The notes under the pieces: generated by a model
Seen by the model: the letters and a program-made list of their open reading frames with translations, nothing else
Databases searched by the model: none
Told to the model about the DNA's origin: nothing
Position numbers and translations under genes: made by a program
Assembly: GCF_037042905.1 (NCBI RefSeq)
Contig: NC_087252.1
Coordinates: 6,822,001 to 6,886,000, forward strand
Length of the DNA: 64,000 nucleotides
Source: Lytechinus pictus
Taxonomy: Eukaryota
Direction: 5' to 3'
Shown here: positions 11,661 through 60,320 of the stretch, piece by piece
How the letters are laid out: every line of letters starts with the position of its first letter
Position numbering within the stretch: position 1 is the first letter of the stretch

Positions 11661-11687
11661 TAAACAAACGAAGAGTAGTCAAGTGTT

Positions 11688-13227: not shown

Positions 13228-13265
13228 TTACTCGAAACATCGAGTTCTGATTTTTTGTGCGTATG
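13228..13265 (-). CDS. Gene A terminal exon AYAQKIRTRCFE*
   Basis: Acceptor region homologous to the first kinase exon acceptor of gene B (57141); diverges after ~8 nt. Confidence 0.55.
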
Positions 13266-16200
13266 CTGCATTGTTTTAAGACATATAAATTTTCGAAGAA
13301 GTACATTTAATATACTTAAAGGAGAATGAAACTCTTGGAGCAATTTAGCTTTTGTGAAAGCAGAAAAATCAAAGAATAAGATCAACAAAAGTTTGAGTAA
13401 AATAGGACTAGCAATAGAAGAGTTATGAGCATTTGAATGTCGAGATCACTAATGCTATGGAGATCCTCCCATTGGCAATGCGACCAAGATCTATGATGTC
13501 ACAGATGAACAACTCTCCCCTTTTGGACACTGAAAATATACCCCAAAACATATCTTTTTGCTCATTCTAATCATATGACAATCGAGTCATCAATTATATA
13601 ATGTTGTGAAACCTCTGTACTTGTCCTCTCATAAAGAGAACACCTCACCTTGTGATAGACTCTATAAAAGTGAGAATATAAGTGAAATAAGTACTAAAGT
13701 AATGAGGGAGTTGTACGTGTGTGACATCACAGATCTTGGTCGCATTGCCAATGGGAGGATCTACATGGCATTAGTGATCTCAATATTCAAATGCTCATAA
13801 CTTTCTTATTATTCATTCAATCTTCCTCAAACTTTGAACAATATGTTTGTTTGATTTTTCTCTTTGATATGGATTAAGCTGGTTTCAAGGGTTTCATTCT
13901 CATTTAAAACACCTAATCTAAAATCAACATAATAATTAAAAAAGGAGTATTATGTCTGATCTTGTGAGATTTCTAATACGTATCCTGGTCAATTATATAT
14001 TTCCAGAGAATATAAAGTAATTATGAATTTGAGATGAAACAAAATTAAAGGATACTCCGGGCTGAAAATAATTATATCTAAATAAATAGAGAAAAGAAAT
14101 CAGTGAGCAAAGTGCTAACAATGTCATCAGAATTTGATTGCAAATAAAGCAGTCAGTGGAATTTAAAGTTTACTAATATTTTGTGAAAATACTTTATGCA
14201 CATCGTTAGATGGACTAATGATGCCACCCCCTTTCTTTATTTTCTTATAATTATTTAAAAAGATCATGCATGTTGTATTATATGTCTCTCTTATGAGAAA
14301 ACAGCTGCAGAAATTAATGTCCAATACATGAAATCAATTGTCAATCAAAATATAATTGTAAAAGGTTAAAATTTCACTAAACATTATTGCATATAATAAA
14401 ATACTAAGATACAAGTGGGAATAACAAAATCATATTAATTTGCCCACTGCATGTTCATGAAGAGATGCAAAAACTGTTATACCGATATAACGCAAATCTT
14501 TAAAATGTCATAACCCTGTTTTTCCATTGATAAAATTGTTAATGCGTTGATTGTTTGATTTCCCTTTATCTATTCAAATCATATCATTTTCTGCCTGGAG
14601 TACCCGTTTAACGTGTATAAGAGTAGTCATAAAAAGAGTTCTGTTGCACCACCAAGAATAATGATAAGGTAAACACTTGCTTACGCTTAAAATCTAATTT
14701 TCACTTTTTTGTGTACTTTGGGCCTTTATCCCATAGAGACCTGATTATGAATTATCAGAATGATAAAGAGATAATTTGAAAAGAGAGCATTAAATCAAAG
14801 TAGTTGCACGAATGCATAAGAAACAAAAATATTTTTGACAAAATTATACAAGGTTTGTTTGAATGAATATGATCATAAAAATTTAGATTGAGTTTAAAGA
14901 GTAATGTTACACAGCAAATGTATAGAATCAAAAGAAAAGTTGAAAAATATCATTCTTGAGCAATTTCTCACCTCGATCTCTGCTTTGAATTATCTCATTG
15001 GCCACGTTGTTATTCACCCCCTGTGGTATATTCATTTCTTTTCTGTAGAAATGTGTATAAATTGATATGAGTTTATTCAATCTCATGAAAAATAAGAAAT
15101 AATTTGTTTTACATTCACTCAAAGGCATTTCATGGCACATATATAATCAAGAACAATCGCAATGAGGGAAATGTTATAATAATCAGTGATGATTATCACC
15201 AAGAGCGTTTATTCATTATTAAAGTGTTTTAAGAATGGGATTAGGAAAAAAGTCTTAAAGTACGTCTACAATGAAGGGTCTGGGTTTTTTACCTATTGGA
15301 AATAAAATCATATGTATATGTATATCTGTTGGAATGAATTTATCCTTTGTCATTCTATTTCCGTCAGTTAAAGTGTATGTATCTGAGTAAAATGTATGCG
15401 TGAACGTTGGAATTTACTTTAATACTAGCTTGTGTTTTGAGGCGAAGTGTGTATGGTTAGAAATGTGAGTGTGTTCTGTGCTTTTCAGTGGTATAGGATG
15501 TTGTAAAGTTTGGTATAAATATGTGTGGTTATTTAGTATGGGCTGTTACAGTATCGGGTTTGAGGGTGTGCGAGAGTGGATGAATGTGTGGGTGAGTGAG
15601 TGCGAGGTTGTACGCGTGTGTTCGTAAGGTGAGTTAGAAGCAGGCCCCCGAAGCTCCGCCATTTTGTCGGGGACATTTGGGCAAATCCTAAGCAACCATT
15701 TGCATAAACATGAATAATTAATCAGTTCGCTACACATCCCAATAGACTATTAATGCGACGAAGCAGAACGCGGAGATCAGCATCACGCATGCGCATTGAG
15801 CGAGGTCAACTTTGAAACTTTCATGAAAGTTCATGTATTCATCACGCGATTAATTTACTGCTTACTACTTTTGACAAATCAGCGATCTTTAAGAGTCACC
15901 AATAGAGAATCCATGGAATCGGTACACATGAATGCAGTTCTGATCTTCTTTCCTTCCTCGAGATGGGGGGGGGGGGGGGAGGGGTCAATCGGTCTCTTTT
16001 TTTTTAATCTACTCTTTATTTTGCATTGATGCAAATGAAAGGGGCAGAATAACGAACGAGTTTATTTAACGATAACCAATAAGCCATTACAAAGCCGGCC
16101 CGTGCCCCCCCCCCCCTTTGAGAGGCAAAATAAAAAAATTGTAATGTAAATACAAGTGTGCCCCCCCCCCCATTTGAGAGTGAAGGCCCCCCCCCCTTTA

Positions 16201-16923
16201 TTTTTGCTTGTCAAATTTGCCCTCGGGGAAAATTAATGTGCCCCCCCCCCCCCTCTTTCGAAAATCCTGGATCCGCCCCTGTTCTCTAGATTTTCTCTCT
16301 TCGGCTCTCTCTTTTTTTTTTTTTTTTTTTTTTTCTTTGCCTTCTTACAGTCTTATTATTCAATCACACACATAACACACTCTCCCTTCCGCAATTCATT
16401 AAACAAGAAAACAATACTGGGTGATTCCAACTTCGGCGTTGGTGTAGATGCTGGTGTGGATAGCACAATTCAAATTTTTATTCCTCCAAACCTAATATGA
16501 GTTAAAAAAAATAATCAAAATCATGTTATTAAAAGCTCAACATCAAGTGAGGTGAATCAATGAATCAATTTCATTATAATTATGGTGCTGTGCTGATGTA
16601 AAACTTGGTAAGATGCCACACCGAAAGATCAACAGCAAACATGAAATCCCCGTATAACTCTTTATTCTTTTTTACAAATATCTCTATCACATCTACCATG
16701 TCTACATCACAGCCATGGATCAAAAATACTTTTAAGGGGGGGGGGGGGGAGGTGGTGCTTTTGCCCTCTCCCCAAAAGATCATCATTCTCAAAAAGGATT
16801 ACTTTTGTTTTCTTTTCAATGGAACTTATTTTTATTTGTCATACTTCTTTTTTTTATTTCTTTTTATTTTTTATTTTTATCTATACCTTTTTTTCATTAT
16901 TTATTCATTTATTTGAATATTTG

Positions 16924-16954
<31 letters not shown>

Positions 16955-19900
16955 GGGGGGGGGGGAATTTACAGGATATGTAAATACAACCCCCTCTATC
17001 CGGGATCCATGCCTGCGCAATGTAGGTCTCATTACTCTTATCTTTATGCTGCTTGTTCACTACTGCTCGCTCATTCTACAAGTACTTCCTGTCTCTCCTC
17101 AAATGACTTGATTCACCTAAACTCAAAGCTAAAAAGAATCATATAAGACTTGTTAATTCAGTGACAAAATCATGTTTAATTCATTTTATTCCAAATACAT
17201 ACGTCAGGTAACAATTTATTCCTCTTGACTCTAAAGATCAAATTTTGATCAAATCTCGTTCCCATGTGCTAAATATGAAATGATGGAAAGAGGCTACTGC
17301 CCTCTCAAACACAGATGTAGTGTCACATGCCCCCCTTCCCTGAATCCATTCATCATTATTTTTTGTAAAAAAAAAATCTTCATTAACAAAATTATTACAC
17401 AAATGAAGAGTTTGGTTGCCGAAGGAATTAGATCTACTTTGCACCGTTCCGAAAAAAAAAATCATTTTTTTTTAATTATCCCATATTGCCATATTCTTAC
17501 GAGAAACTAAATTTTCATAATCATTATTACCTATATTCACAATATCATTATAAAAACTACTGCTACAATCAGCACTATCATTATCAGTAAAATAACCCTA
17601 TTCCTCCTAGATTGTGCATTTGCTTGCTGGGTGGTGAGGAGGCAAAGGGTTATCAGTACTCTATTCTAAATACATGAATGATAAAGTCATTACGTTTGAT
17701 ATAGGATAATTATTGGTATTTAATTTTTTGCCCTTTTTGAATCATGAGGGTCCTGCAGCTTACATTGTAGTATTCATTTGGTCTTGTAATTCTTGAGTCT
17801 CTATAACAGCGGATGTGAAGCAGAATCATGTTCCACGTCTGTTGAATAAAAAAATACATACAGAAAGGCAGGAATATTAGCAATTCAAGCCGTTGTTGTA
17901 AATAAAAAAACAAAAACAACTTACACTACCGGTATAAAGGTTTATAGAGCATAAGCTGAATGAGTCACCTTTGAAAAATCTGGTGTGGATAGAAGAATTA
18001 ATGTAGGTAGTGAACAAATGAATTGATTTCAAAAGATTTTCCACTTGCTTAGTACACTTTTATATTTACTATTTACAAGCTTGATCTACGGTATTAAAAA
18101 ACAAAATCCTAAAAGGATGATATTAATCGTCCCTTGATATTAAAGTGAAAATGAAAATGGAGCTTGAAGTCTGTCAATACTATTCTAACCTAGTCTCTGA
18201 GCTGATTTTACCGATCATTCAGTCACTATACTAAGTTAAATCTTGGTTTAATAAACACATGATTTTCGAAACTAAATATAGAGGTCTAGTCTTAAGTTAT
18301 TGAGTCTAGATCTAGAATCCTAGATCTATTTAAAAATTTAATGATAGACGGTAACATTAATGTTTAAACAATTAAAGTCAACGACATAACTGTATTTTAA
18401 TTAGGGCCTAGTTTGATTGTTAGGGTAGTGGGTAGTGACCTAGTTCACTGCTAGTTCACTGCTTCAGGGCGTGACGACCCTGCCTTACACGAGTCCCGGG
18501 CTCAGCTGGCTCCGGCTGACAGTACCCGGTATGGGCCCCTGTCCAGGGTGACGGACATCCAGCTATGGGAAAATAGCTAGGGAGTTAACCTCATTGAAAA
18601 CCGGAGTGGAGCCCCGCAGGCGGTCTGGTGTTCGTCTCGACACTCTTCCGGCAGCTTCTGCAGCCAAACTGGTGCCAAATGTATTGTTCTGCTCTCCTTT
18701 GGACTACATCAGTGAGGCCGAGAGGGGGATTCTGACGATTGGGCTACCCAGGATCTCCATAGAAAGAGCCCAGGCTTGCGCTCTGGAGAGGACACTTCAG
18801 TGCCACTGTCAAAAGTGGCAGAAACAACACGGGAAGCAGCAGTCACGATTGGCGTAGGATTCAGGCGCTACGGGTTGCTTCCGTCGGTGGGAGGGATCTT
18901 CGTGTTCCACTGGTCAGCTACCGCCCACCTCAAGCTGGGCAGCCCCCAGTTAGTAAGGTGCTGACCCGCCACAGGCCGCCTGCTCCATCGGGTGCTTGGA
19001 GCTTAGAGAATTGACTCGACAAGCGGACTGAAACTACTGCACCAAGCAATAAACGAAATATAAAGAAAACCCCAGCCTTGCGTTTGGCAAGCTGGAACGT
19101 CAGGACTATGTGTCCTGGCATCTCAGACAATCTTCAAGAGGTCGATGACACCCGCAAGACAGCGATCATCGACCGCGAGCTAAAGAGGCTCAACATTGAC
19201 ATTGCGGCACTTCAAGAGACAAGACTCCCCTCAGAGGGGAGTATCAGAAAAGAGGACTACACCATATTTTGGCAGGGGAGAGAGCCACAGGAACGGCGAC
19301 AGCATGGCGTTGGATTCGCAGTGAGGAACTCCTTACTCTCCTCGATTGAACCACCAAATAGAGAAACAGAACGCATCATTTCACTTTGCCTATCAACTGC
19401 CTCCGGTCTAGTGAACATCCTAAGCTGCTATGCCCCAACGCTCTGCAGTTCTGCAGAGACAAAGGACCAGTTCTATGAGCATCTGGACTCTGTCATTGCT
19501 AACGTCCCTGCCAACGAGCACCTATTCCTACTAGGAGACTTCAATGCACGGGTGGGAGCGGATCATGACTCCTGGCCCAAATGCATCGGACACTTCGGCA
19601 TTGGTAAACTGAATGAAAACGGTCAAAGGTTGTTGGAAGTCTGCTCTTACCACAACCTCTGCATCACCAACACGTTATTTTCCACAAAACCATGCCACAA
19701 GGTATCCTGGAGACATCCCAGATCTCATCACTGGCACCAGCTAGACCTTGTCATCACAAGAAACTCATCCTTGAACAGTGTCCAAGTTACCCGAAGTTAC
19801 CCCATGCGGATTGTGACACAGACCATTCACTGGTTGCTCAAAGCAGAAAGCTCGCCCACGCATCAACACTGCAAACATATCAAGTCGTGACCTGCAGGAT

Positions 19901-22900
19901 CTCTTCGCCGACTCCATCGAACAGGCCCTCCAGGACTATCCTTCTGCTACTGCTGAAGAAAGATGGATTCACATTCGCGATGCAATCCATCACTCAGCCA
20001 TGGAAGTATTCGGCAAGAGAGAAAAGCAGAACCCAGACTGGTTCATAGCTGGAATCACAGAGTTGGAGCCTGTCATTGAAGCAAAACGAGCAGCACTCGC
20101 TAACTACAAGAGTGATCCATCTGTGAAGACGCTCACAGCCCTCAGAAAGGCGAGGACGGATGTCAAACGGGTTGCTAGACGCTGTGCCAATGACTACTGG
20201 TTAGGCCTATGTCAGAGCATCCAGCTTGCAGCAGATAACGGCAACACCCGCGGTATGTACGCATGCATAAAGAAGATCTTTGGGCCAACCATCAAAAAGA
20301 CATCACATCTCAAATCAACTACTGGGGAGATCATTACAGACAAGAAGCTTCAAATGGAGAGATGGGTTGAGCATTATGAAGAGCTTTACTCGCGTGAGGT
20401 GATAGTCAACGAAGCTACAATTGAGAGCATCGAAAGCTTACCTGTCATGGAAGATCTTGATACTGTACCGTCCTTAGAAGAGCTTACAAAAGCTGTGAAC
20501 TCCCTGACCTCCGGCAAGGCTCCAGGAAAAGACGGTATACCCCCAGACCTAATCAAAGCCGGAAAGGACACTGATCTTCTACGCCTCCTCCATGAACTGC
20601 TCTGTCAATGCTGGAAAGAGGGAACAATTCCGCATGATATGCGCGATGCCAACATCATTACTTTGTATAAGAACAAAGGGGATCGCAGTGATTGTAACAA
20701 CTATCGCGGAATCTCCCTCCTAAGCAATGTTGGAAAGACATTCGCCCGAGTGATCCGAACAGACTGCATTTGCTTGCAGCCCGCGTGTACCCAGAATCAC
20801 AGTGTGGATTTCGGGCTGGAAGATCAACCATTGACATGATATTCTCCATTCGCCAACTGCAGGAGAAAAGCCGTGAGCAGAGACAGCCATTGTACATTAC
20901 GTTCATCGACCTTACCAAGGCCTTTGACCTAGTCAGCAGAAAGGTTCTCTTCAATTTGCTTCAGAAGATAGGATGCCCTTCCACACTGCTTCAACTGATT
21001 GTATCATTCCATGATGATATGCAGGGCACCATCCAGAATGACGGCTCTACTTCTGCCCCATTCCCAATCAAGAATGGGGTCAAGCAGGGATGTGTGCTTG
21101 CCCCTACGCTCTTTGGGATCTTCTTTTCTGTGCTGCTTTCACACGCCTTCAGATCATCTAAGGACGGTGTGTACCTACACACAAGAAGCGATGGAAAACT
21201 ACTCAATCTTGCACGACTTCAGGCTAAGACGAAAGTTAGAAAAATCCTGATTAGAGACATGCTGTTTGCTGATGATGTTGATCTGTCATCCCAATCCGAG
21301 GAAGGCCTTCAGAGACTAATTGACTGCTTTTCAGAAGCTTGTGAAGACTTTGGCCTCACCATCAGCCTCAAGAAAACAAACATCATGGGCCAGGATGTAC
21401 GGAGTGTTCCAGATATCACCACTGGAAACTACACCCTTCAAGTGGTTGAAAACTTCACCTACCTCGGCTCCATGATTTCCAGCAAACTCTCTCTTGATCC
21501 CGAGCTCAACGTACGCATTGGCAAAGCAGCAACTATGATGTCTAAACTCTCAAAGCGGGCCTGGGAGAACACTTCACTAACCACCAACACAAAAATGAAG
21601 ATCTATCAGGCCTGTGTGCTCAGCACTCTCCTGTATGGCAGTGAGTCATGGACCTTGTATGCACGCCAGGAGCGTCGTCTAAACGTTTTCCATCTCCGCT
21701 GTCTGAGACGAATCCTGAACATCAAATGGCAGGACTACATCCCAAACAAGGATGTCCTCAAGAAGGGAGGAATGACAACCATCTATGCTCATCTAACACA
21801 ACGACGACTGAGATGGCTTGGGCATGTCACTAGAATGGATGACGGCCGTATTCCAAAAGACATATTGTACGGAGAGCTAGCGACCGAGACCAGGGCTGTT
21901 GGAAGACCTGTCCTTCGCTTCAAGGATGTGTGCAAGAGGGATATGAAGACCAGTGAAATCAAAACTGCAAACTGGGAAGCCCTAGCTGCAAATCGTCCCA
22001 AATGGAGACATGCTGTGAAGATGGGCATCCAAAGGAGCGAACAGAGAAGAGTAGATCAATGGGAGGAGAAAAGACAACTAAGACGACAGATAGCCATGGC
22101 TCCAACAGCTCAGCCACAAGTGACATTTGTATGCAGCAGCTGCAACAAGACCTGCTTCTCAAGGATTGGACTATTTAGTCATCGCAGGAGCTGCACTTTA
22201 TGAATTAGGAACTAAAAGAAACTACCAGCGCAAACTCTATTGTCTCTCGAGACAGACAGATGCCAATATATATATAGTGTGATTGTGAGTGCCATTTCAA
22301 GTGACAGAAAATTCAGGCAAAAAAAAGGGAGTGTCATCTTAAACTGGGTCTGGGCCCTGACTCACTGAAATAATAGACTAGACTAGGTCTAGGCCTACAT
22401 GAGGTCGTTTTGTTGTAGATCTACTTGTAGCCTAACAAATGTAATCGTAGCTTAATTAATGGGATTGTAAATGATTTAGACTCGATATTTGAACAGGGAA
22501 AAGAGAAATGTTTAGCCAAGACATGTAATCGAGTCTACCAATGAATTAAGCCTAACCGATAGGGCCTAGGCATGGTCTAACGTTAGATCGATCTGCGTTT
22601 AGTTAGGCTGTCCGAAGTAGCGACGTCCTCGACCCCTACCGAGGGCCAAGGGATATTTAACAAGTAACGTTACCGCCCGTACGTCTAAGGTAGATATTAA
22701 CTTCAAAGTAAAACATGACAAGACTAAATGAGTTTTGGGAATGAAGCATTTTTACAACAACAAACAATCTAGGACTACGGTCCTATAATGTGAATTCAAA
22801 GAAAGGAACGGGTTGTCATTCATGGAACTGTGAATGTCTTTCTAAAAAAGATGGGTGCGCGAAAGATCACAGACACAGCTAGTCAAGCCTAGTTCCACCT

Positions 22901-25900
22901 GGAGCCGTGATCAGCGCACGCATCGAAATTTCAGAGAAACTCTCGCCCGAAAGTCTGGCGTGATGATATGAGGACTAAAATGGTAGCAGACAGATGTAGA
23001 TCTACAAGTAATCTAGCCACCATCAAGATCACGACGATGGAAATAGTTTTGAGTTTTCGCAAGTCGTTTGCTTCCTGATTTTTCACATTTTATAATAACA
23101 AATTAATTCATGTTGTACCCAGACTGCTTGAGATCCCAACTAACATCAGACCATTAGATTTATTTTTTGTTATTTAATTGAAATTCAGTGTTAATCTGAC
23201 AGTACTCACCGAAAAACTTTCAAGGAAATATTCTTCATCTGTGCGGGTGACGTCATCTTTCAGCCCTTACTTAATTAAGCGGAAGTGACGATAAAGGTCA
23301 AATTATTACGTACAAATTTGAATTCAAAAATACATTATTCATAAGGTAAGGTCCAATCAAATCGCAGTATTTTTTGATTACGCGAAGAAAAAATAAATGA
23401 TTCTTTAGCAATATGCAAATGGTGCTTAGGATTTGGTTCAAATGTCCACAGGGGGGTGTGGCCAAAAGTGGTAAAAAATACGCTTATTACCATTGAGCTT
23501 CTATGGAGTGTCTGTACGTTATATGCAAATGTTATTTAAATGAGGCTTTTCCGCGGGTGCTACCTTTCCGTCTATACGTATTTATTTTTCGATGGTTAGA
23601 AGAGTGTGTGCATGCACGGGATGTGAGTTGTGTGTCAGAGGACGTGAGTGTTAGAGAGGGTGTGATGTGTTCGAGTGTGAGAGGGTGGAGGGGTGTGTAT
23701 GATAGGGTGCAAATGTGAATGTGCAGGCAGTGTCTGTAAAAATGTGTGTACCTTAAAGATAAGTGTGAGTGCGTGGGTGTGCGTGGGATTATCTGAGTGG
23801 GTGTATGGGATTTCCGCCCGTGTAGTAATATAAAATGTGAGCGTAGGTGTTACCTTCTAGGGTTTGTTTGTATGTGTGCTCGACAAAATATAATTCCTTC
23901 TACTTACCTTTTATCATTCTTGTTTGACTCATGGAACTCTAGTAAATAGATATATAAATATACACGATTGCAATAGAGTGATGAAGAATTGAAATGTAGC
24001 AATATGTACACTGAGATTGCAAAATAAATTCAGGATGTCACTCGAGGACAGGATGTTGAAGACTTAATAAACCTTTGCTTTTTAACTTTCAGTTTTTTTA
24101 TCTTTCCATGATAATAAAATTAACGTATCGATGACCATTGAAGATCCCACCTACTTAAGTTGTATTATGATTTAGTATTTCTAACACGATCTTATTAAGG
24201 GGAAATATGGTCAGATCTAGTTCACAGACCTTCTTTAGACAAACCAAAATACACGATATGAGTAGCGGGGAAAATGACAACTTTGCTTTAACTGTATTTG
24301 TATGATCATCATCGTATTCACAATATTATGTATGTTGTCTTTAAACAGTTATTTAACAAGAACCGTAGGGCAGAAAAATATCTTCCCACTCTGCGCCTTT
24401 ACAGTTATATCACGGGGATCACCTTTGAACGTGCTCCTCTTGTAATGATTATCATAATTGTCATGATTATACTCGTTTAAACGGTTGGATGAGTATAACT
24501 TTAGGTCACATGTCCGTTGTCATACCTCGTCTTTGTAGTCAAGTTAAACAAGGTTTAGCGAATTACATTACATTACTTCTTCTTTTACATTCTCATCTAC
24601 GCTATTGTAACAAAACTGCTGAGTAATCACCTGGTTTGGTTTTTCTCCTCAGAGGAATGAACTGTACAAAGTTGATGATAATAGAAGCTACTAGAAGGAT
24701 GGCTAAGATAGCTATTCCAGCAGATGCTCCAGAACTCAGACCAGACGGTGAACAAGGACATGGTGTAGGCTCGGGTGTGGTCTCTGGTTGGAGAGAGAGT
24801 TTTATATCTGTTATTATAGATTGTGGAATTTAATTCGTATACCTGGAAAATCAGATTGATCATAGATGAGACAACCATACAGGTACATGTAGAAGGTCCA
24901 TGCTTCAACTCAGTATTCGAGACCCTATTCTGTAATAAAACCCGCGCAGTTTGTCCATCATACAGGCTATCATTTTTAAATCGAATATGTCCATAATTAT
25001 TCCAAATCTGCCCCGAAACATATCCACAATTTGTTATATACTGTCGTAAACAAAATTTCCTTTAAAAGATAAGACAAAATAGTCTTAATAAACTTATGGG
25101 CCCGGATTCATAGAGGGAAATATCTATTGAGATTTAGACCTAAAATCTGGGCATTCTAGATACATTTTTTTATTATAAAAATCAATACATCGCAAGCGCG
25201 AGCTGAAAAAAAAATTGATGGCGATCTGAAGAGGGTCAATTTAAGCACTGTTTCAAGCATCGTAGGGAAATTGTGAGGTGGATTTAGATTGTACTTCACA
25301 AATGATGCGAGCCCCAAGCGCGAGCCGATTTTTTTATTATCATTTTGACCAAGCACCCGGGAACGTTGTAAGGACAATTTGTCATCACATGAAAAATACT
25401 ATTTTTTTCCATTCCTCTTCCTAAGCGCGAGATGAAACGAGATTAAACGCATTTTTAAATCGAAAACATGTATGTCCATAATTATTTCAAATCTGCCCCA
25501 AAACATATACACAATTTTTGAAATATTGTCGTAAACAGAATTGTCTTTAAAAGATAAGAAAAAAAGTCTTAACAAACTTATGGGCCCGGATTCACAAAGA
25601 GGACTGAGGAAAATCTATTGAGATTTAGACCTAGAATCTGGACATTCTAGATACAATTTTTTATTATGAAAATCAATAAATCGCAAGCGCGATATCGATA
25701 TTCCATTCAGAAAAAAGGGACAATTTCGTTATTAGGAATTCATAGAACTGTACCTTAATTATTGATCAATCTTATATTAATGAGAACTCGAAATCTGTTC
25801 ATATTAAAAGGGAATGAAACCTTTGGAACAAGTAGGCTTGTGTCGAAACAGAAAAATCAAAGAATAAGAACAAAGAAAGTTTTAGAAAAATTGGACAAAT

Positions 25901-46075: not shown

Positions 46076-46135
46076 TCACATCTCCAGAGTAGAGGCATAC
46101 AACCCATCATCCAAGTCATTAAGAGACAAGTAACT
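46076..46135 (-). CDS. Gene B last exon SYLSLNDLDDGLYASTLEM*
   Basis: TTTCACAG acceptor, phase 0, TGA. Confidence 0.75.
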   Translation of the reverse strand, partial: SYLSLNDLDDGLYASTLEM

Positions 46136-49100
46136 CTGTGAAATAAGACAAAATAGTTACAATTTTAATGTCATCAAAATTAGATTTCAAACCAATAATG
46201 ATAACTTCAAATTTACTTATATAATGACGGTACTTCACGGATTAAATTTATTTAGTTAGTCATTCATTTTCACAAAAACAATGTATAATACATGTTTTAA
46301 CAATCAATATAATATCAACTGCATGTCAATATAGACTCCTGTTAAAATAAGAAAAAAAATAGACTCCTTGTAATATCAAAGGTACACATAGAAATCATAC
46401 AAATTATATAATAAAAATGATAATGACAATATTAAAAATAACAGTGCAGTTCTTAATACGCATAACACCTACATGTCTCTATGCGCGAGGTTAGGATGTG
46501 GTTAGAATTGTAAATTTAATAATTAGATATCAAATGATTATACATAACATCAAAGAATATTAAACAGGGATTGAACCTACATGTGACTAAGTTAAACATT
46601 CTGAAAGAGATGGGTTTTAAATTGTAATGGAAATAAGTGAAGATATCATATTTTGTTTTTATTGCATCTTGCATATATATTTTTTTCATTGATATTATAT
46701 CATGGCATTAAAAATTAATTGTATAATGAATCATAAATAATATTAAATGATAAAGAAAAGCGTAGTTTTGTGTAAGAGAGACAGAATTGTTTTAATCTTA
46801 CGTGTGTCTTTTCTAAAATCATTTCCATACTCTTCAGGATGTGATCAAAGTTACTCCGATTTTGGGGTTCCTTGTCCCAGCAACCAGTCATAACTACATA
46901 CCTTTGAAATAAATAAAAGATGATGTTTATAAAAAATATTACAAGTGTTTAAGGAAGTATAAATGGAACTGATTTAAAACGTGGAATTATTAGAGGGGTA
47001 GGCCTATTTACTACATGCTGAACATTTTATGATTTAAACAGACAGGGTTAATTCACACTAAAAAAAGACTAGGAATTCCTTCAAATTCATATAATAACAA
47101 AGGTATAATATGTTAAAGTTTTGCGCTATTTTTTGGTGAAATAGTTGTACGCATGTCCACTCGAGTATACAATGAGAAAGCTGATTCTATTTTCTTTTTT
47201 CAGTATATATGAACTAAGATTTTTTTAATATTTTGTCCGCCTAAAATGAAAAGTAAAATGATTGATAAGTGATTTAATCTGTGAGATATTTTTTGCTGTA
47301 TTTTTTTTGGTTAAGAAGAAGACATATTGTATGCACATAAGAATGAAAATATGAAATAATAATAATTTCATGAAATTACTTGAGAAAAAAATAAAATGGG
47401 ACAAAACATCATCGGCTCTCTTATTAAATATTTATGACGGCGTACATGTAGCTGTTTTCACAAAAAAATCAAAATTCAATAACTTTGACATTTGTCAAAT
47501 CTTGATACAATCATCAGCATTTTGCCAAATTATTTCTGTTATACTTTAGATGAAAATTATTTTCAACCCGGAGTACCCCTTTAGTATAGGTCATTCAAAT
47601 CATGTTTCCCTATGATTGTGCGAAAAATCTCTATCTGTGAAGAGTGATTTTGTTTTTCTTTGTTGTGAATTTGGAACATATACGATAAATGAATTCACGA
47701 GAGTAAACAACAAGTGAAATTCTCTATAGGTCATTTTACAATCCTAGTAATCCTTGACAAGCAAGTTCTAGATTTTCTTATAAAAACTTAAGTATTACAC
47801 TTCTTGTGCACAGTGACGAGGGTGTGGCATCTGGTAACCATTAGCAACCTCCGTCTGAACCGAGCTGAATGTCATATTTGGGTATGGCCTTGCACCTATC
47901 AGAATGTGAAAGCAAAAATCATATTGTTAAGAATCTGAATATTGAATATCTAGAAGTTGCCCAAAATAATTATATATTATTAGAAATAGAAGTATGAAAA
48001 TTCTCATTTACCCTAAAGCCAGGGTAATAATATCCAAGTCCTTTGGAAGCGCATAGAGACGTTATTTATAATGTGTTATGCGCTTACAAGAACTGTCTAT
48101 TATTATTATTATTATGAACATGGTATCAAAGTTTGATTTCTTTTAATATCTCGACTCCGATAACCCCCTCCTCCATGTTTGCATATGTGCCCCCAAAAGG
48201 GGTAAATCACACGTTTTTTGTTCCGTTCAGCTAAAATTACTGGGTCTAATTTTAAACAGTATATCATTCATCTGATTATCAGTCACAGATTTAACCATAC
48301 CTAAGCCAAATAACTTTATTTGTAGCAATTATCAATAACTTTTTTAAATGTTCAACATCGCCCGGCGTTTTATTTATCATTAGAATGTTCGATATCATTA
48401 TCTTTCGAGCCGAATAAAGTTATCATGTACAATGTTATTTCAATATTTCCGTCATTATTGTTGGTGTTGTAGTAGCAGTTGTAGTCATGGTAGTAAGATA
48501 ATTGTTTTTGTTGTATTTTTCCTTTTATCATAATCATTTACCATTTTATCATCGACAACTGGTAGAGAATTATCATCATCGCCACCATCGTCAAACCTAT
48601 CATTGTTATTTAGTGATATATGACTAATGGGGCGTTGCAAGAAAGTTATGTTGCAATTGATTGCAAATCGACTGCAACTTTGCAGCCGATTCCGATCGAC
48701 TGCAACTAGCAATCAATCGCCAATTTGCGTTGCAAGAAAAAGGCTTGCGATTGAACGCAAGTTGCAGCTGATTTGCAGACGATTTGCAGCTGTAAACAGG
48801 GTCTGCAGCACAAGACTAGCTGATGAAGCAAAATAACTCTTGCGATAATCGTGACTGTGGAAGAGAGTAAGTAGAAATATTCATTTTTCACAGCTTTCTT
48901 TCTCCATTATGTATGTTTTCAGAGAATTTATATGTTTTAGACCTATGCCAGGGAAAAAAATATTTTGTAAAAAGTGAAAATGTATCTTTATCGCCAGTCG
49001 AAATTTCACCTTCAACAATTTTTTAAGCACACAATTTGAACCCAGTCCCGCTCTTGACTTTTTGTGTTGGTAATGCACGGTTGTACCAACACGACAGGAC

Positions 49101-52100: not shown

Positions 52101-55100
52101 CAGCTTTTTTCAGATCTTTTTATTTGTGACCACTCACACCCCTGCTGACTGGACTTCTATGGATTCTTCATGCCAACCTTAAGAACTGTGGTCTTCTGCA
52201 TGATACACGTCAATTTCAAACAAGACATTCTGTGGTGAAACACTTGATGTAGATGAAATGAAATTTTATTACTGAATCTCAGAAGTAATTCCTCGGAAGC
52301 AAGAAACAATGAAAAATAAAAATGAAATGTCCATCAATAATGAATTTCTTGAGCAGTGTTCTTTTTTTGTGCACAGATCAATGAAGCATTTCAATTCCAA
52401 GCAGGTATGTAGTCAATGCTGACCTCGAGGCAACACTTTGCTGGCCTTGGTCTGAGACACTGTACATAATCTATGGGAAGTTCTCTCAAGCTGCCTCATG
52501 ACTCGGAAGGATCAGCCTCGACCTCATCCCTGTATCAGTGTAGTAAAATCACGCGAAATCGTCATTACGCAAACATGTAATAAAATGAGGTCACCACAGT
52601 GAATCGATAACAGCGAGAGCGCTGCACATTGCCAACGGTTCACAGAGATTTGCACGCAAACCTATGAGAAACAAGCGAGAGCGAACGATTCCACGAGCTC
52701 TTCCCCCCTCTTTCCCTTCCCGGCGATTTGTCCCAAAACAAAAGGATTTCCGCAAACTACGATACTTTGTTTTTCAACTTTATTAACATCCGATCTATCC
52801 ATGCCAATTAGATTTTTACCGTGCCATTTTGTTATAAATTAGCAAAAGAACATGTACATCAGTTTTGCCAAGCTGAATAAAACGACTGGTAGGCGTTTAT
52901 GACAGCCGTCATTCATGTAAACTTTTGTATCCGATATGTGAACTTTCATTCCACATGTAGTGTACTGGTATGTACACAACGTCGTACTATATACTACAGT
53001 GATATCGAAGGTTTTTGCGTTAGTATTAATATTCAGAGGTGAAAGCAACGGGAGCATATAAGATTGACATGTTCAATAAAATCCAGTAAAACTATATAAA
53101 AATAATGAGTCCTTGATGCATTTCACTGACACAGTGAAGGAATTATCAGGATCATCACATCATCACTTATTACAAAACAGTTGAACATGATGAAATTATA
53201 AAACTTACATGACTTGTCCAATATCACATGAATCATAATATCCCTTATTTTTCCTTTGGCTTTATAATGACTGTTGAGTGCAGAAAAGGGGGAAACGTTG
53301 ACTATTTTAACTGGTACTGGCTGGTTGTTCCCGTAGTCAGTTAGCGTGCATGTTTTAGGCCTACATTCACTATGATCACGATGGTCAGAGAACAATTTCC
53401 CTCAATTCTCTCTTATCATGCTTATCATTACATGTATCATGTGTATACCTGGGAGATGGGGTTTGGTGTGTGCATGGAGCTACTAACTGGTGTGGGCATG
53501 CAAGGAAATATACCTGAGGTATAGGCCTTAGTTTGTGTGTAAGTTCATTGGGCATGTTGGGTCGGCTCTTCGGTCAAGAGCGCCGGTGCTGTGTGCATCA
53601 TCGCACGGTGCAAGCTTCTGTGTCAAATACGCGCGAAACGACTAATAACAGGCTACAAAAATCACTCGACCATGCTGCCGCTATGCGAATTCGGTGTGCG
53701 AAGATTACGTAACTTTCACCAAAATTAACGCTACACCGTAATGACGATTTCGTGTTATTTTACTACACTGTGTATGCAAATGTGATATATATCTACGATG
53801 CAATCTCATGATTAAAGAGAGAGAAACGAGAGCTTCAGATTTTGAAGTGTAGCAATCTCCTGAAATTTATGTTTTATTTGAAAATCAAACTAAAATAACT
53901 TAATTAGGCATGTTATTCATTATGATATTTATGAATGAAAGCATTGAAGCAAATTGGTGCTCTTGCAAAACAAATTCTGAATTGTATTTACTGCAAACCC
54001 TCAGAAATACATATAACAATTTGCCAGTGCATGAAGTTTTTTGATAAAGAGTGGCTTTTGTGCCTGTGGAGAGTTATTATTTCTTTAACATTTCTTCATA
54101 CAAATTATTTCAGAAATCACAATTTGAATATTCCATGACCTCTGTTAATAAGAACAAAATATTTTTGGTGATTGACACACTTCAAAATGATATTAGGAGA
54201 GAATGTAGTGAAGTTGTGTGAAAATAATGGCATAATTGCTGTATGAAGATTGAAAATAAAAGTATTTTAAGTTTTTCTTGAAAAAACCTATGGAAAATTG
54301 AAAATGGCATAATTTACACAAGTTTTCAAAACAAATCACCCCCCCAATTTTTTTTTGGAAAAAATAGTACACAAGCGTATGGACAATCAATTGAACGTAA
54401 ATTGAGCGCAAATTTTGCGCGTCCTCCAAAATATTACATAAGTTACGTTCGATTTGCAACTAATTGCAAAGCTTGCGCTTGATCTACGTTCAATTGATCA
54501 AACGCAACTTGTTCTTGCAACAGGATTGAACGTAACTTGCGTTCAATTGCAGATTTGCGTTTAATCGGAGGACTTACGCTCAATTTTGGGAGTTGCGTTC
54601 GATTTGCGTTCAATCGCAAGTTTCTTGCAACACCCCATAAGATATTAGACTTTTACACGTAAAACTTCGTGCACCTCCTTTCTTACCCAGTGTCACGATT
54701 TCCCACAAGACGATACCAAAAGACCAGATGTCTCCTTTTATTGTTTGGTCACCCGTTGCCATGGTTTCTGGTGAACTCCATCTGGATGGTTTCTACATAT
54801 GACGGTGTGCAGATAACAAATAATCTTGCTATAACAATAATTCAAGCGATTGGTAATTATAATATGCAGTGAACCTATAAAATATCAAATATGTCTTAAT
54901 ACTGGCCGAAATAAGCAATAATAGACTGGTATGGTTGCAGGCTGATGATCAAAGTCAAGGGTCACGTGAGTTAGGGTTCCAGCCTCGCTTCATTTAGAAT
55001 AATATATTTTCATTTACATTATCAAGTTATCAAATAGGAGATTAATCTCTATGACAAGCCTACACCATAAACATTCATTATTGTAAGGCATAACGAGTCA

Positions 55101-58100
55101 CACTTACAGCTACGTCACCAAAGAGCGATGAAGAAAGTCCATAGTCTGATATCTTACATTGCTTTCTTTCTCCTAGCAAAACATTGTGAGCGCAGAGAGC
55201 CCCGTGGATGATCTGAAGAAAAGAGAAATACACTTGCAACTCTATATAGTCTTTAGGGTATTCATATACATTTATTTTGATCTCTGTGAAAGTCGACAAA
55301 TTTCCCGTCTTACATCTGTGTTAAAAAAAGGAGCGATAAACCATTCATATTCCAATTGTATGATTGATAATACCTGTAATGTTTCCAAAATAATTTAGGT
55401 TTAAGGAGAGTATGGCTGCCGAAAATATTTCTGATGACATGGTTGTACAGAGTTGCAACCCTAATTGCGAAAACGATTTTCTACTGTATCTTGGACCGGT
55501 CAAGTTTTCAAGTCTGACTTAAAGGGTCCATTTCAGCTTAAAGGGCGATTTTTATTTAAAAACCCAACTGCCTCCCTTTCTCCTCTTATACCCCTTTTTT
55601 GTTAAGGAATCTCATAAAAAATACCTTCTTAGATGCAAGGAACTGCATCCCTTTAGCAACCTGCCAAGCCAAGTTAAGTAGGGTACCCTCCTCAATACGA
55701 ACACCGTTTGGTTTGAGATTGCTGTACGTGGGTTGAGATTGCACCCCTGAAGTCTGTAGATGGGTAAGGAGTGTACCCCCTGAGATGAACTCATACAGAA
55801 TACTACCTGCATGCATAAATACACATCAAAAACTGTGGTGTTGACCGGTGTACATAGAGGACCACACCAGTTATTTTACACCGGTGTTAGTTTTACACCT
55901 AGAGGTGTCATTACAACACCTTTGGTAGTTACAATTACACGCTTTGTCTCGAGGGTGTAATTTTAGCACCTCGGGGTGTGGTCCTCTATTAACACCAACT
56001 GGTGTCAGTTCTAACACCGCAGTTTTTACAGTGTAATAGATTGTAATAGAAAGGAACACTCTGTGACGTCATGTTTAATAATTGTATCTTCTTCATTGTA
56101 ATTTAGGATAAGTATCCTTGCATTATCAAATGGAATGGATTGTTGTGTCTTCTCCTTTTGTTTTGGTGTAAGAACCCCCACCCCCTCCCCCTCTCTCTGT
56201 CTCTCACACACACACTCTCAATCTCTTCTAGGGGTTTTCACTCATCAGAAGGTGCAATGTGCCATCTTTTAATTGGTAACTACCTCTCTCTTGTGTCTCG
56301 TCGAGATGCCTTGGATGAGGGAAAGGGGCCAACGAACTCTTTAGCGATTATAACAAATATTGATATATTGTTGTTGTTTCCATCAGAGCCAATTATATTC
56401 CATATTGTCCAATTAAAAGGGCTTTACGTACCTTGTTCTTTACAATATCCTAGGCATTTGACAATATTTGGTTGATCCGATAGCTCGTAAAGTACCTTGA
56501 TGGCTTGAAGAACTTGTAATGATTTTGTCACGTGATCTAAGAGAGTGTATAGTATATAATGATATAATGGTATGACCTTTCATTTTAATATTCCCCTTCC
56601 GGAGTGTTTACCCTTGACCAATTTCTGGACAAGCAAAGAAAATATTAAAAAAATATATAAATATTACTATTATTCAAAATGGGGGCATGTTCCCCCCCCC
56701 TTCACGTTACCCCTGCCCCCCCCCCCCTCCTTCTTTGATCCCGGTGAAACTGAATTCAAGTGAAAGGGAAGCCTTTGGCATTAAAACTATTTAATTATTT
56801 ACTTTGGTTTCCAATCTGCTTGTTCAGAATGACATCCTATAACGATGTGGTAATAGCATAAATAATGAAATTAAAATTTAATTGAGGTGACAAATTAAGC
56901 ATGGCCTTCAAATATGAACTTCTCTCATTGTCATTAATCATTGTTAACTTTACAAGCTACAAACCATCACCTGGTATTTGCCTAATAGCAACGTCGAGAT
57001 GGTTTTGTTTTGATCGAAGGTCTCCCTTCCATACCTCGCCGAAGTCACCCCGCCCAATCGAGCCAAGTCTGGTGAAGAACGTCACGTTTTCACGGGCAAT
57101 GACGAAGGAGTGGGTAGAACCCAGTTTTAACGCTGTGTATGCTGTATTGTTTTAAAACATATATATTTTCCACTAAGTACAATTAAAATACTGTACATGT
57201 ACTTAGAACACCTAGTCCATTATGTCTGATCTTGTGAGATTTCTAATAAGTGTCTTGGTCAGTAATATCTTTGCAGTGAATATAAAGTAACTATGGATGT
57301 GAGATTAAGAAATAGAGGGATACTCCGAGCTGAAAATAATCATATCTAAAAAAATTCACTGAGCAAAGTGCTGAAAATGTTATAAAAATATGATCGCGAA
57401 AATAACTCAGTTAGTGAAATTTAAGATTTAGTAATATTTTGTGAAGTCATGTATATGCACATCGTCAGATGGACCGATGATGCCATACCCCCACTTTTTG
57501 TTCTTATGTTATTACATGAAAACATAATTGTCTAAAATGTTCATGCATGTTGTAAGATATGTCTCCCTTCTGACAAAATAATTGCAGTAATGAATATCCA
57601 ATACATGAAACCAGTTGTCAATTGAAATATTCTTTATTGTAGGAGGTGAAAATTTCAATAAACATTATTGCATATAATAAAATACTGAGTTACAAGTGGG
57701 AATAACAAGATCATCAATTAACTCACTGCATATTCATGAAGAAATGCAAAAAAACCTGTTATAGCGATAAAATAAAAATCTTTAAAATGTCATTACCTTG
57801 TTTTCCCCTTGATAAAATTTGTAATGCTTTGTTTGATTTTCCTTTATCTATTGAAATAATATTATTTTCAACCAGGGGTACCCGTTTAATAGTAGTGGTA
57901 TACATCATATAAAGAGTTCCCTCACACCACTAAGAATAAAGATAAGGTAAACACTTGCTGACGCTTAAAATATAATTTTCACTTATCCTTTTTATGTACC
58001 TTTGGCCTATATGCCATAGAGACCTTATTGTGAATTATCAGGGTGATAAAGATATAATATGGATGATGTTATTTTTTTTAAACAGAGCGCCCAAATCAAA

Positions 58101-60320
58101 GTAGTTGTACGAATGCATACTGTTTAATAGAAGGAAAAAAAATGACAACATAATACACGTTTATTTGAATAAGTAATATTTATATGGAGTTTATGGTTTA
58201 ATGTTACACAGCTTATATGCAGAATCAATAGAAAAGTTACAAAATCTCATTCTTGAGTAATTTCTCACCTCGATTTCCACTTTGAATCATCTCATAAGCC
58301 ACGTTGTCATTCATCTCCTGTGGTATATTTATTTCATTGCTGTAAAAAATATATAAATTGATTAGAGTTTATTTCATCTCATGAGAAATGATATTTTTGT
58401 TACATCCACTCAAAGGCATTTCATGGTACATATATATTAGCAACAATCGCAATGAGGGAAATGTTATATCAGTCAATGATTATTACCCATTATCAAAGTG
58501 TTCCTAAGAACGGGATTAGGAAAAACGTCTCAAAGAACGCCTTCATTATTTGAAGGATCTTGGTTTTTTCCCTATTGGAAATAAATCAAATATATATCTG
58601 TTCACATGAATTCATCCTTTGTCTTCCTATTTCCGTCAGTAAATGTGTATGTATCTCAGTAAAATTTATGCGTGAACGTTGTAATTTACTTTAATACTAA
58701 CCTGTGTGTTGAGGCGAAGTGTGTGTGGTTAGAAATGTGAGTGTGTTCCGTTCTTTTCAATGGTATAGGATGTTGTAAAGTTTGGTATAAATATGTGTGG
58801 TTATTTAGTATGGGCTGTTACAGTATCGGGTTTGAGGGTGTGCGCGAGTGGATGAATGTGTGGTGAGTGAGTGCAAGGTTGTACGGGCGTATTCGTAAGG
58901 TGAGTTAGAAGAGTGTGTGCATGCACGGGATGCGAGTTGTGTGTCAGAGGACGGGAGTGTTAGAGAGGGAGTGATGTGTTCGAGTGTGAGAGAGTTGTGT
59001 GTGTATGATAGGGAGCAAATGTGAAAGTGCAGGCAGTGTCTATAAAAGTGTGTGTATCTCTAATGATAAGTGTGAGTGCGTGGGTGTGTTTGAGATTATC
59101 TGAGTGAGTGTCTGTGCGTGTTTTTTTCATGTGGGGGAGAAAAAATGGTGTGCAAAATTGGTGGGTTTGGTTTAAAGGGGAATCCAACCCAAATAAAAAC
59201 TTGTTTTTATAAGGAAAAGAAAAATCAGACAAGTTGATAGGAGAAAGTTTGAACAATATTTGACAAACAACAAGAAAGTATCAGTGATCTCAATTTTATA
59301 AGCAGCTATAACTTTTCTATTGCTTGTCTGATTTCTTTCAAGCTTCCACCATTCTGTTTAATTTATTTTTCTCCTTCCCAACACAACATTTTATGGCCAA
59401 GGTTGGATTCCCCTTTAATAGAGATCTGTACATATTATAGATTCATTGTAGTCATATAAAATGTGAGCGTGGGTGTTGCCTTCTAGGGTGTGCGTGTATG
59501 TGTGTCCGACAAAATATTTTTCCTTCTACTTACCTCTTATTATTCTTTGACTCATGGAATTCTAGTGGATAAAGATATAAATATACACGTTTTTAATAGA
59601 GTGATGAAGAAAAAAAATGTAGCCATATGTAAACCGAGATGGCAAAATAAATTCAAGAGAGCACTCGAAGTCAAGATGCTCAAGATTTTGTATACCTTTG
59701 CTATCAACTTTCAGTTTTACCTCCCCTTGATAAAACATTAACGTATCAATGATCACTTAATATCCCACCTACTTGAATTATGGTATAGTAATTCTAACAC
59801 GATCTTACTAAGCGGAAATATGCTCAGATCTAGTTAACAAACATTCTTTAGATAAACGACAAGACACGATATGAGTAGCGGGCGGAAAATAATGTTGCTT
59901 TTATTTTCATGATCATCAGAATAAATACATTCCAACTTTGCACCTTTACAAATATTAGACGAGGAACACCTTTGAAGTTGCACCTTTGAACATGTTCCTC
60001 TTTTGTTGGAGTTATACTCTTTTAAATTGGTATGACTTTAGGTAACATGTCCATTGTTTTACCTCGTCTATGTAGTCAAGTTAAACAAGGGTTAACTTAT
60101 TACATTACATTACTTCTTCTTTTACATTCACATTTACTCTATGTGAATATAACTACTCAGTAATTACCTGGTTTGGTTTTTCTCCTAAGAAGAATGAACT
60201 GAATAATGTTGATGATGATAGAAGCTACTAAGAGGATGGCTAGGATAGCTATTCCAGCAGATGCTCCAGAACTCAAACCAGACGGTGCACAAGGACATGG
60301 TGTAGGCTCGGGTGTAGTCT
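46076..60320 (-). CDS. Gene B (5'-partial): receptor tyrosine pseudokinase with TM, juxtamembrane ITAM and Tyr-bearing tail
   Basis: Exons 60168-60320, 59534-59561, 58269-58339, 56971-57141, 56432-56536, 55625-55806, 55108-55212, 54687-54792, 47799-47895, 46802-46901, 46076-46135; all GT-AG, one open frame (1178 nt from a phase-1 start). Confidence 0.88.
46802..46901 (-). CDS. Gene B kinase subdomain XI exon
   Basis: YVVMTGCWDKEPQNRSNFDHILKSM. Confidence 0.88.
47799..47895 (-). CDS. Gene B kinase subdomain X exon
   Basis: GARPYPNMTFSSVQTEVANGYQMPHPRHCAQEV. Confidence 0.88.
49887..50296. mobile_element. Nested poly-G-ended MITE with 8-bp TSD
   Basis: CCTGGGAGGGGGTACT ... AGTACCCCC..CCGG; flanks CTTCTATG / CTACTATG. 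Confidence 0.7.
51969..52144. mobile_element. Nested MITE with 6-bp TSD (hAT6-like)
   Basis: CAGGGGTGTGAG / CTCACACCCCTG; CTGACT on both flanks. Confidence 0.8.
52536..53770. mobile_element. Nested TIR element with 5-bp TSD (hAT5-like)
   Basis: 34-bp TIR CAGTGTAGTAAAATCACGCGAAATCGTCATTACG (2 mismatches); TGTAT on both flanks. Confidence 0.85.
54687..54792 (-). CDS. Gene B kinase subdomains VIII-IX exon
   Basis: KPSRWSSPE...GDIWSFGIVLWEIVTLG, tyrosine-kinase-type signature. Confidence 0.92.
55108..55212 (-). CDS. Gene B kinase subdomains VIb-VII exon
   Basis: IIHGALCAHNVLLGERKQCKISDYGLSSSLFGDVA. Confidence 0.92.
55625..55806 (-). CDS. Gene B kinase subdomains V-VIa exon with short insert
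   Basis: ILYEFISGGTLLTHLQ..PTYSNL..LLNLAWQVAKGMQFLASKK. Confidence 0.92.
55822..56033. mobile_element. CAC-ended (EnSpm/CACTA-like) MITE
   Basis: TA|CACATCAAAAACTGTGGTGTT ... AACACCGCAGTTTTTACAGTG|TA. Confidence 0.7.
56432..56536 (-). CDS. Gene B kinase subdomains III-IV exon
   Basis: DHVTKSLQVLQAIKVLYELSDQPNIVKCLGYCKEQ. Confidence 0.88.
56971..57141 (-). CDS. Gene B kinase subdomains I-II exon
   Basis: AYTALKLG..IGRGDFGEVWKG..DVAIRQIP. Confidence 0.9.
58269..58339 (-). CDS. Gene B juxtamembrane exon NEINIPQEMNDNVAYEMIQSGNR
   Basis: 71 nt, phase 2-1. Confidence 0.82.
59176..59414. mobile_element. Internally deleted Kolobok-like MITE
   Basis: TTAA|AGGGGAATCCAACC ... GGTTGGATTCCCCT|TTAA. 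Confidence 0.85.
59534..59561 (-). CDS. Gene B 28-nt exon EFHESKNNK
   Basis: TAG/GTAAG sites, phase 1-2. Confidence 0.75.
60168..60320 (-). CDS. Gene B stalk + TM exon TTPEPTPCPCAPSGLSSGASAGIAILAILLVASIIINIIQFILLRRKTKP
   Basis: 153 nt, phase 1-1; 4 amino-acid differences from gene A. Confidence 0.88.

Follow-up and report, generated by a model that had tools for sequence, protein, structure and literature searches.

A transposon-interrupted member of a tandem cluster of three-immunoglobulin receptor pseudokinases with an ITAM-like motif in the sea urchin Lytechinus pictus

We analyzed a 64,000-nucleotide window of the 812-Mb genome of the sea urchin Lytechinus pictus (C8:6,822,001-6,886,000) that holds gene A and part of gene B, two receptor genes on the minus strand. 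A sequence-only reading of this DNA had described them as a tandem pair in which B carries an ITAM (immunoreceptor tyrosine-based activation motif) as well as a pseudokinase and A is a signaling-null copy with three immunoglobulin (Ig) domains. A 16-exon template, taken from copy D of the same gene family, which has an exact public model (P0006), was mapped across the region. Coordinates are given as window positions, extended below 1 and above 64,000 for adjoining DNA.

Gene A begins with a signal-peptide exon (34225..34306, minus strand) mapped from copy D, which is open and ends in a GT donor. Exons for Ig1 (33460..33768), Ig2 (32217..32540), Ig3 (31324..31596), the transmembrane (TM) segment (24631..24783), and two juxtamembrane exons, JM0 (23908..23938) and JM1 (14972..15042), follow on the same strand. 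As the sequence-only reading had stated, the exons from the signal peptide to JM1 are all open, with AG/GT ends, and in phase. The Ig1 exon is V/I-set-like, and public model P0040 matched the Pfam entries V-set (27.6 bits against a cutoff of 26), I-set, and Ig_3 at this position. Ig2 is a CD80-like C2-set domain (PF08205) with an in-frame 6-base deletion relative to D, and JM0 has 31 bases, as in copies Z, Y, and X. Template mapping found no stalk exon in gene A, and loss of the stalk preserves phase. We rejected an open frame at 32687-32854 ("Ig2a") as a further exon: it is a degenerate duplicate of the Ig2 start, upstream of the true Ig2 exon, with stops in its counterparts in B, C, and E, and no public model uses it. 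This degenerate copy resembles the Ig2 start of the Strongylocentrotus model P0034. Just upstream of A, positions 35264-39321 hold a 2.03-kb tandem duplication (99.1% identity) that carries two copies (37053 and 39077) of the alternative first coding exon of A's public model X2.

The first tyrosine codon of the ITAM-like motif is TAT at 58294-58296 in B and AAT at 14997-14999 in A, confirming the reported change of YEMI to NEII. JM1 ends in ...NNVANEIIQSRDR in A and in ...DNVAYEMIQSGNR in B, and in A's exon the motif's first half is eroded (D>N, Y>N, M>I, G>R). Splicing A's JM1 to its native acceptor at 13265 yields AYAQKIRTRCFE followed by a stop codon at 13230-13228, which reproduces the YAQK end described before. 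This terminal segment (13228..13265, minus strand) is a four-base stub of the first kinase exon, K1, with read-through into a transposon up to the stop.

Two earlier claims, that the second ITAM half of A had mutated to YAQK and that A is a kinase-less gene, did not hold up. K1 of B begins CATACACAG; A keeps the first four bases at 13265-13262, followed by a 14,324-base insert (13261 to -1062), TA again, and the rest of K1. Because the insert splits K1 four bases past its acceptor, AQK... is transposon sequence joined to the K1 tyrosine codon and not a mutated half-ITAM. Exons K1-K8 of A lie at -1061 to -11204 (C8 6,820,939-6,810,796), 1-11 kb left of the window, with no TM or Ig exon separating them from A's JM1. 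Each of the eight matches the reference in length and is free of stops, with canonical acceptors at K2-K8 and canonical donors at K1-K7. A separate kinase-only gene left of the window was considered and rejected, the K1 stub and distal K1 being two halves of one exon around a TA duplication.

The K1 insert, of which positions 1..13261 (minus strand) fall in the window, is layered and consists of an outer element, a nested 11.6-kb element, a further insertion inside the nested element, and a pair of short interspersed elements (SINEs). The outer element is about 1 kb long, with 10-base terminal inverted repeats and TA on both sides in A. Both ends of the insert adjoin in two copies, one of 1.1 kb on C9 and one of 2.9 kb on C19, which are 88-94% identical; TA flanks both ends of the copy on C9 and the right end of one on C2 and is lacking on C19. 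Inverted repeats, TA duplication, and dispersed copies identify the outer element as a nonautonomous, TA-targeting DNA transposon, presumably Tc1/mariner-like, and we saw no transposase in it. The nested element (1458..13101, minus strand) is flanked by TTAA and is one that we take to be piggyBac-like. Three other copies end at, or at most 15 bases from, the same point, and dozens of near-full-length copies at 93-98% identity (copies in L072-L077) have no long credible open reading frame. The nested element in A carries 1.3% private changes (137/10,548 sites). Three copies carry only 0.06-0.19% each, indicating from sequence divergence that this family spread very recently.

A second insert, of 7.9 kb, occupies A's JM0-JM1 intron (15641..23594); its junctions are flanked by an 8-base target duplication, and it is not in B. 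Within it lies a broken long interspersed element with endonuclease and reverse transcriptase pieces (19015..22200, plus strand; PF03372, PF00078). The intron sequence reported as common to A and B was recovered, at 79.5% identity over 1,758 bases and 75-90% elsewhere.

Positions 127-310 and 324-507 (minus strand) hold a tandem pair of a 185-base dispersed repeat. Over its first ~36 bases it is almost the same as the 5' end of the 7SL RNA genes of this genome, and an unrelated body and a CA tail follow. It occurs in at least 40 places at 98-99% identity (40 scored of 1,638 first-look candidates) and looks like a young 7SL-headed SINE. An Rfam search at the gathering score gave no matches in the window. 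Such SINEs are given as known from Euarchontoglires and hagfish alone in part of Kojima 2020 (PMC7245038), and none from a sea urchin turned up in a brief literature search with Repbase and Dfam outside its scope. The 7SL part is shorter than the 60 bases of the SINEBase criterion (PMC3531059, in part), and the repeat is possibly a third independent origin of 7SL-headed SINEs.

Gene B is complete, with a public model of 732 aa (P0043). On the minus strand of the window lie its TM exon (60168..60320), JM0 (59534..59561), JM1 with YEMI (58269..58339), and K1 (56971..57141), which encodes YTAL, the glycine loop, and VAIR in place of VAIK. These are followed by K2-K5 (54687..56536; K2 56432-56536, K3 55625-55806, K4 55108-55212, K5 54687-54792) and K6-K8 (46076..47895; K6 47799-47895, K7 46802-46901, K8 46076-46135). 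K4 has HGA for HRD and DYG for DFG, and K8 carries a C-terminal YLSL-x7-YAST. The signal, Ig1-3, and stalk exons, sought beyond position 64000, were retrieved at 81754-65251. The complete exon set, the YEMI-x6-YTAL pair, and the missing catalytic residues bear out the earlier description of B, which by its sequence is a receptor of three Ig domains and a TM segment that combines an ITAM-like motif with a pseudokinase. Shuffling the 60-residue juxtamembrane stretch 100,000 times produced the pattern YxxI-x6-YxxL in 77 cases. The TM exons of A and B are 35 kb apart, and their ectodomains are 86% identical in Ig1 and 79% in Ig2-3. Between the two genes, positions 43281-43750 match B's JM1-K1 intron at 65% and represent a repeat or the remnant of an older copy.

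A and B do not form a pair; the larger diversifying cluster that had also been suggested is present. All eight candidate TM exons lie between 6.67 and 7.03 Mb. Of 12 K3 matches, nine fall at 6.67-7.14 Mb with 92-100% identity, the other three being distant (51-70%). Four TM-bearing copies look intact (B, D, E, and X) and four are broken, each differently (A, C, Y, and Z). B, D, and E have all exons open and full public models, and X is open in Ig1-3, TM, JM, and K1-K8, with its signal exon unmapped. C carries a stop codon in its Ig3 exon and a -1 frameshift in K7; in Y, the TM exon is frameshifted and K3 contains a stop; and Z has a ruined Ig1 and a kinase-only public model, with no Ig2 or Ig3 found by template mapping. 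Further orphan fragments occur at 7.05, 7.07, 7.13, and 7.24 Mb. An inverted Ig1-3 copy at C8:7,237,148-7,253,946 (plus strand; public model "mucin-2-like") has no TM match in the DNA examined up to 7,286,000, and a kinase-only fragment spans K3-K7 at C8:7,133,798-7,136,699 (minus strand); these are possibly secreted or broken members.

Among B, D, and E, kinase regions are 94-98% identical, Ig1 78-85%, and Ig2-3 82-87%; for the intact copies, tails are 94-98% and ectodomains 78-87% identical. Pairwise ratios of nonsynonymous to synonymous divergence (dN/dS), with C left out, were 0.37-1.71 in Ig exons and 0.18-0.33 in kinase exons, ratios that are rough under sequence exchange among copies. 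Because of frameshifts, K7 of copy C and copy Y were omitted from several codon counts. Between B and D, dS was 0.02 in the kinase and 0.07-0.16 in the ectodomain, a contrast that points to a mosaic history. Five tail-side introns of B and D are 91-98% alike and their Ig1 domains are 78% identical, for which conversion or recent duplication would be a likelier explanation than an artifact. For A and B, the sequence-only reading had raised misassembled haplotypes as an objection; we reject this artifact as unlikely, the five alignable introns being just 78-89% identical.

The cluster belongs to what is, by its conserved residues, a sea urchin clade of three-Ig, single-pass tyrosine pseudokinases with VAIR, HGA, and DYG. 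The layout comprises a signal peptide, a V/I-type Ig, a C2-type Ig, a third Ig, a stalk, TM, YEMI-x6-YTAL, a tyrosine-kinase fold, and a second tyrosine pair. The fold matched PF07714 at 223 bits (cutoff 23.1), with Tie2, RET, and ABL as the best PDB sequence matches, and is without three residues, the catalytic Lys and Asp and the Glu of helix C. All 16 echinoid rows (Lytechinus, Strongylocentrotus, and Diadema) have Arg for Lys and HG[ASTNL] for HRD and keep the DFG Asp as DYG; in the outgroup, 14 of 14 rows keep Lys and 13 keep Asp. The echinoid rows form one clade (100/100 support) on a long branch of a midpoint-rooted tree built without a bona fide sea urchin FGFR. B and the family fall under the definition of pseudokinases as kinases missing at least one of the VAIK Lys, HRD Asp, and DFG Asp, among which atypical active cases exist (PMC13519141, in part). 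From its residues, we read the family kinase as catalytically dead.

No paper describing the family was found in our literature search; the 2006 sea urchin kinome, receptor tyrosine kinase (RTK), and immune catalogues were outside its scope and may list family genes. Parts of PMC8662651 and PMC8180256 do not mention it, and the latter, in part, lists FGFR1, FGFR2, and Tk9 as the sole echinoderm genes of the FGFR group. Database labels of the family are FGFR-, Tie-, or Cad96Ca-like, and we rejected the FGFR label on the public models of B, D, and E, whose catalytic residues are absent and which fall in the separate clade (100/100). The same pseudokinase also stands behind other ectodomains in relatives (P0014, P0030, P0053, and P0056), with Pfam entries for C2-set with FN3-like (P0030), sushi (P0053), and sema-associated domains (P0056), which suggests ectodomain swapping or faulty gene models.

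The ITAM consensus is YxxL/I-x6-8-YxxL/I with an acidic residue three positions before the first tyrosine. Gene B has the ITAM spacing (YEMI-x6-YTAL) and departs from the consensus at -3, where it has Asn, with Asp at -4. The YEMI...YxxL pair occurs in 28 of 81 fetched proteins, several of them isoforms, with a spacing of 6 in Lytechinus and Strongylocentrotus and of x9 in Diadema (5 rows), which is outside the usual ITAM spacing. The second pair, YLSL-x7-Y, stands at the protein end. We infer that these tyrosine pairs act as ITAMs and that the family functions in the manner of an ITAM-type receptor built on a pseudo-RTK frame. The variable Ig part would bind varied ligands, a Src-family kinase would phosphorylate the tyrosine pair, and a Syk-type tandem-SH2 kinase would dock on the phosphorylated pair, with the dead kinase serving as a scaffold.

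Three public models of A exist, all labelled "kin of IRRE-like 3." X1 ends by read-through into the intron after JM1. In X2 and X3 (P0036, P0041), JM0 is spliced to an acceptor at 17838 in the 7.9-kb insert and a stop follows RRGT. The start of this insert-derived exon (17826..17838, minus strand) was the sole matching acceptor found between JM0 and -12000, with a score of 8.7 (median 9.5) on a simple matrix. The YAQK end appears in none of the three models, nor does any of them extend to the kinase exons. In a run search, no RNA run was listed as holding A's Ig region (two runs had shares of 0.05-0.06), a result that, with no reads aligned, says nothing on expression either way. The possible tails of A contain at most one tyrosine, in YAQK, or none, and the TM segment has no charged residue.

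On balance, we favor reading gene A as a transposon-truncated copy in a birth-and-death cluster. We do so because an open, full kinase exon set lies behind a TA-duplicated insert of a multicopy family, because four of the eight TM-bearing copies are broken, each differently, because A's public models end in 3' intron or insert sequence, and because the singletons in A's Ig exons (15 nonsynonymous, 1 synonymous) give no sign of purifying selection. The simplest order would be that the ITAM exon eroded first, with the kinase still in use, and that two insertions came after, one into the JM0-JM1 intron and a recent one that cut K1 four bases in. Transcripts of A would then probably stop in the inserts or the JM1 intron and encode a membrane-anchored ectodomain with a tail of 20-50 residues, as the public models do. 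The cut would be a recent accident of birth-and-death turnover, and any ligand-trapping effect would be incidental, not selected.

Several codon counts weigh against such a truncated copy. The kinase exons of A show 19 synonymous and 19 nonsynonymous branch changes (dN/dS 0.30, P = 3e-4 versus neutrality), no different from the other branches (0.27-0.42; Fisher P = 0.85). Among 192 near-invariant kinase columns, in a count that leaves out P0014, P0050, P0051, and P0053, A has 8 changes, where B has 5, D and E have 7 each, Z has 2, and X has 8. The outer element has 3.9% private divergence (21/532 sites), and if the kinase exons had been neutral over that divergence, ~37 nonsynonymous changes would be expected versus the 19 seen (hand estimate, P about 0.002). 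The TM exon also looks constrained, with 7 synonymous and 2 nonsynonymous singletons among copies A-E. Finally, loss is concentrated in A's ITAM exon (Fisher P = 9e-4, with 9 exons compared), which is unexpected under plain decay. JM1 of A has 7 nonsynonymous and 1 synonymous singletons in 23 codons; four of its changes fall within the last 14 codons, which are conserved and in which the seven other copies together have one nonsynonymous singleton. Z likewise has 4 in JM1, though these lie in its variable first half.

The divergences of 1.3% and 3.9% are upper bounds for the age of each element's own insertion only. Given 1.3% for the nested element, the cut is possibly recent enough that no stop is expected yet, the probability of no nonsense or splice hit being 0.47 at 1% and 0.22 at 2% divergence. 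By these figures, neutral decay over ~1% is invisible in our counts and over 4% would be visible. What is left of the sequence-only proposal is that A may once, before it was cut, have been an ITAM-impaired pseudokinase receptor, to judge from one small exon picked post hoc.

We consider it unlikely that the transposon-made, tail-less A was retained as a selected decoy that binds ligand or the intact paralogs and damps their signal. In favor of such a decoy, all of its ectodomain and TM exons are open, the TM and Ig1 exons have 7 synonymous to 2 nonsynonymous and 1 to 1 singletons, respectively, the first ITAM tyrosine is lost in A alone among the 8 copies, and the splicing of two of the three truncated public isoforms into nonhomologous sequence suggests transcript support. 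However, after a recent knockout the ectodomain would probably remain open, so open exons do not show selection as a decoy. With 15 nonsynonymous and 1 synonymous singletons across Ig1-3, of which Ig2 and Ig3 contribute 14 and 0, purifying selection on A's ectodomain was not seen. Furthermore, the undecayed kinase exons imply a young truncated state, the public models have three different ends, none of them the YAQK end, and no tail contains an immunoreceptor tyrosine-based inhibition motif (ITIM). The membrane-anchored decoy proposed from the sequence keeps its anchor, in that the three public models are truncated after the membrane, and loses its purpose-built, FGFRL1-like character, in that the truncation was made by transposons.

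Less likely still is an ITAM-less, full-length receptor, rewired and not null, in which the 14.3-kb insert is bypassed by splicing. JM1 would be joined to an AG nine bases into distal K1, in frame to the native stop, giving 719 residues with an intact pseudokinase and without either juxtamembrane tyrosine. The TM exon joins the same AG in frame as well (685 residues), and A's K8 keeps the intact second pair YLSL-x7-Y. The kinase exons look constrained and JM1 does not, and the Strongylocentrotus models P0025 and P0033 lack the same three residues at the K1 junction, in models only. Against this, at 1.1 the distal acceptor scores lower than all 53 mapped acceptors (1.5-16.0), A's native acceptor (5.8), and the acceptor in the insert, and no public model of A extends that far. 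Least probable is a haplotype-specific null, with the K1 insert on some chromosomes only and a full-length A with half an ITAM (NEII...YTAL) elsewhere: the undecayed kinase exons and a nested-element family still spreading are in its favor, but the layering of the insert takes time, and the 19 database kinase rows, which include some from Lytechinus pictus, reach no more than 89% identity with A, so no other public allele was found among them.

PTK7/CCK4, HER3, ROR1/2, and RYK are old, low-copy genes, of which PTK7 has an Ig ectodomain and HER3 relies on phosphotyrosine docking. Like these receptor tyrosine pseudokinases (PMC13519141, in part), the urchin family is single-pass with a tyrosine-kinase fold that lacks catalytic residues. 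Unlike them, it forms a long-branch sea urchin clade with tandem copies, an ITAM-like pair, and fast-changing ectodomains, and no orthology to any of the four was found, with no test aimed at it. FGFRL1/FGFR5 resembles A in its three Ig domains, TM segment, short nonkinase tail, and proposed decoy role, and it is an ancient gene, present in many phyla and with a sea urchin orthologue of its own (PMC2754479, in part). In contrast to FGFRL1, A keeps exons K1-K8, cut by transposons. A search with A's Ig2 returned only six Lytechinus proteins among 67 candidates and no FGFR/FGFRL1 kin across phyla, a weak negative from a word-based search. We rejected the identification of A as FGFRL1, from whose defining features it departs in the presence of kinase exons and, by that search, in the lack of ectodomain kinship across phyla.

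Reported from other invertebrates are an oyster Ig receptor with CgSYK and an amphioxus T cell receptor-like ITAM receptor, Syk-coupled and ITAM-bearing (PMC13344425, in part), which share with the urchin family an Ig ectodomain, a TM segment, and a tyrosine pair of ITAM spacing. In the urchin family, by contrast, the motif precedes a retained pseudokinase, and its phosphorylation and Syk binding are putative. Syk and HTK16 transcripts have been reported in sea star eggs (PMC11593052, in part). Active deuterostome Ig/Cad96Ca-like RTKs, represented by amphioxus P0058 and P0075, likewise have paired tyrosines in the juxtamembrane region (YQSL-x7-YQGL in P0058) and at the C terminus (YxxL-x7-Y) but keep VAVK, HRD, and DFG, and the tree, with its midpoint root and long branch, does not place them as the sister group. 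Both have ITAM-spaced pairs before the kinase, and P0058 also has one after it.

In the vertebrate paired receptor clusters (KIR, LILR, and Siglec), one member carries an ITIM and the other an ITAM or a charged TM residue. The urchin cluster resembles them in its tandem copies, related ectodomains, mosaic history, and many broken members. It differs in that no ITIM-bearing member or charged TM residue was seen and in that the odd copy, A, arose by transposon insertion. A and B are linked and have similar ectodomains without opposite signals, and the sequence-only comparison with paired immune receptors fails in the ITIM/ITAM sense.

Gene A alone matters little, transposon-cut copies being common in tandem families. 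The family carries more weight as a catalytically dead clade with an ITAM-like motif and as a candidate immune receptor group that is little described. Near-identical tails with variable ectodomains are the pattern of variable immune or self/nonself receptors, and to our knowledge sea urchins lack adaptive immunity. Breeding and editing are possible in Lytechinus pictus, so the ligand, the cell type, and Syk coupling are directly testable. A bolder and doubtful proposal is that an RTK became an ITAM-type immune receptor family: the kinase would have died before the Diadema-Lytechinus split and been retained under purifying selection, the tyrosine pair would signal, the Ig part would diversify, and A, its motif lost under a constrained kinase, would be, either spliced past the transposon to full length or truncated, an ITAM-less silent counterweight to B, D, and E. 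If this is true, a paired-receptor system would have been built from an RTK outside vertebrates, and the family would document a path from RTK to ITAM receptor by silencing, not deletion, of the kinase.

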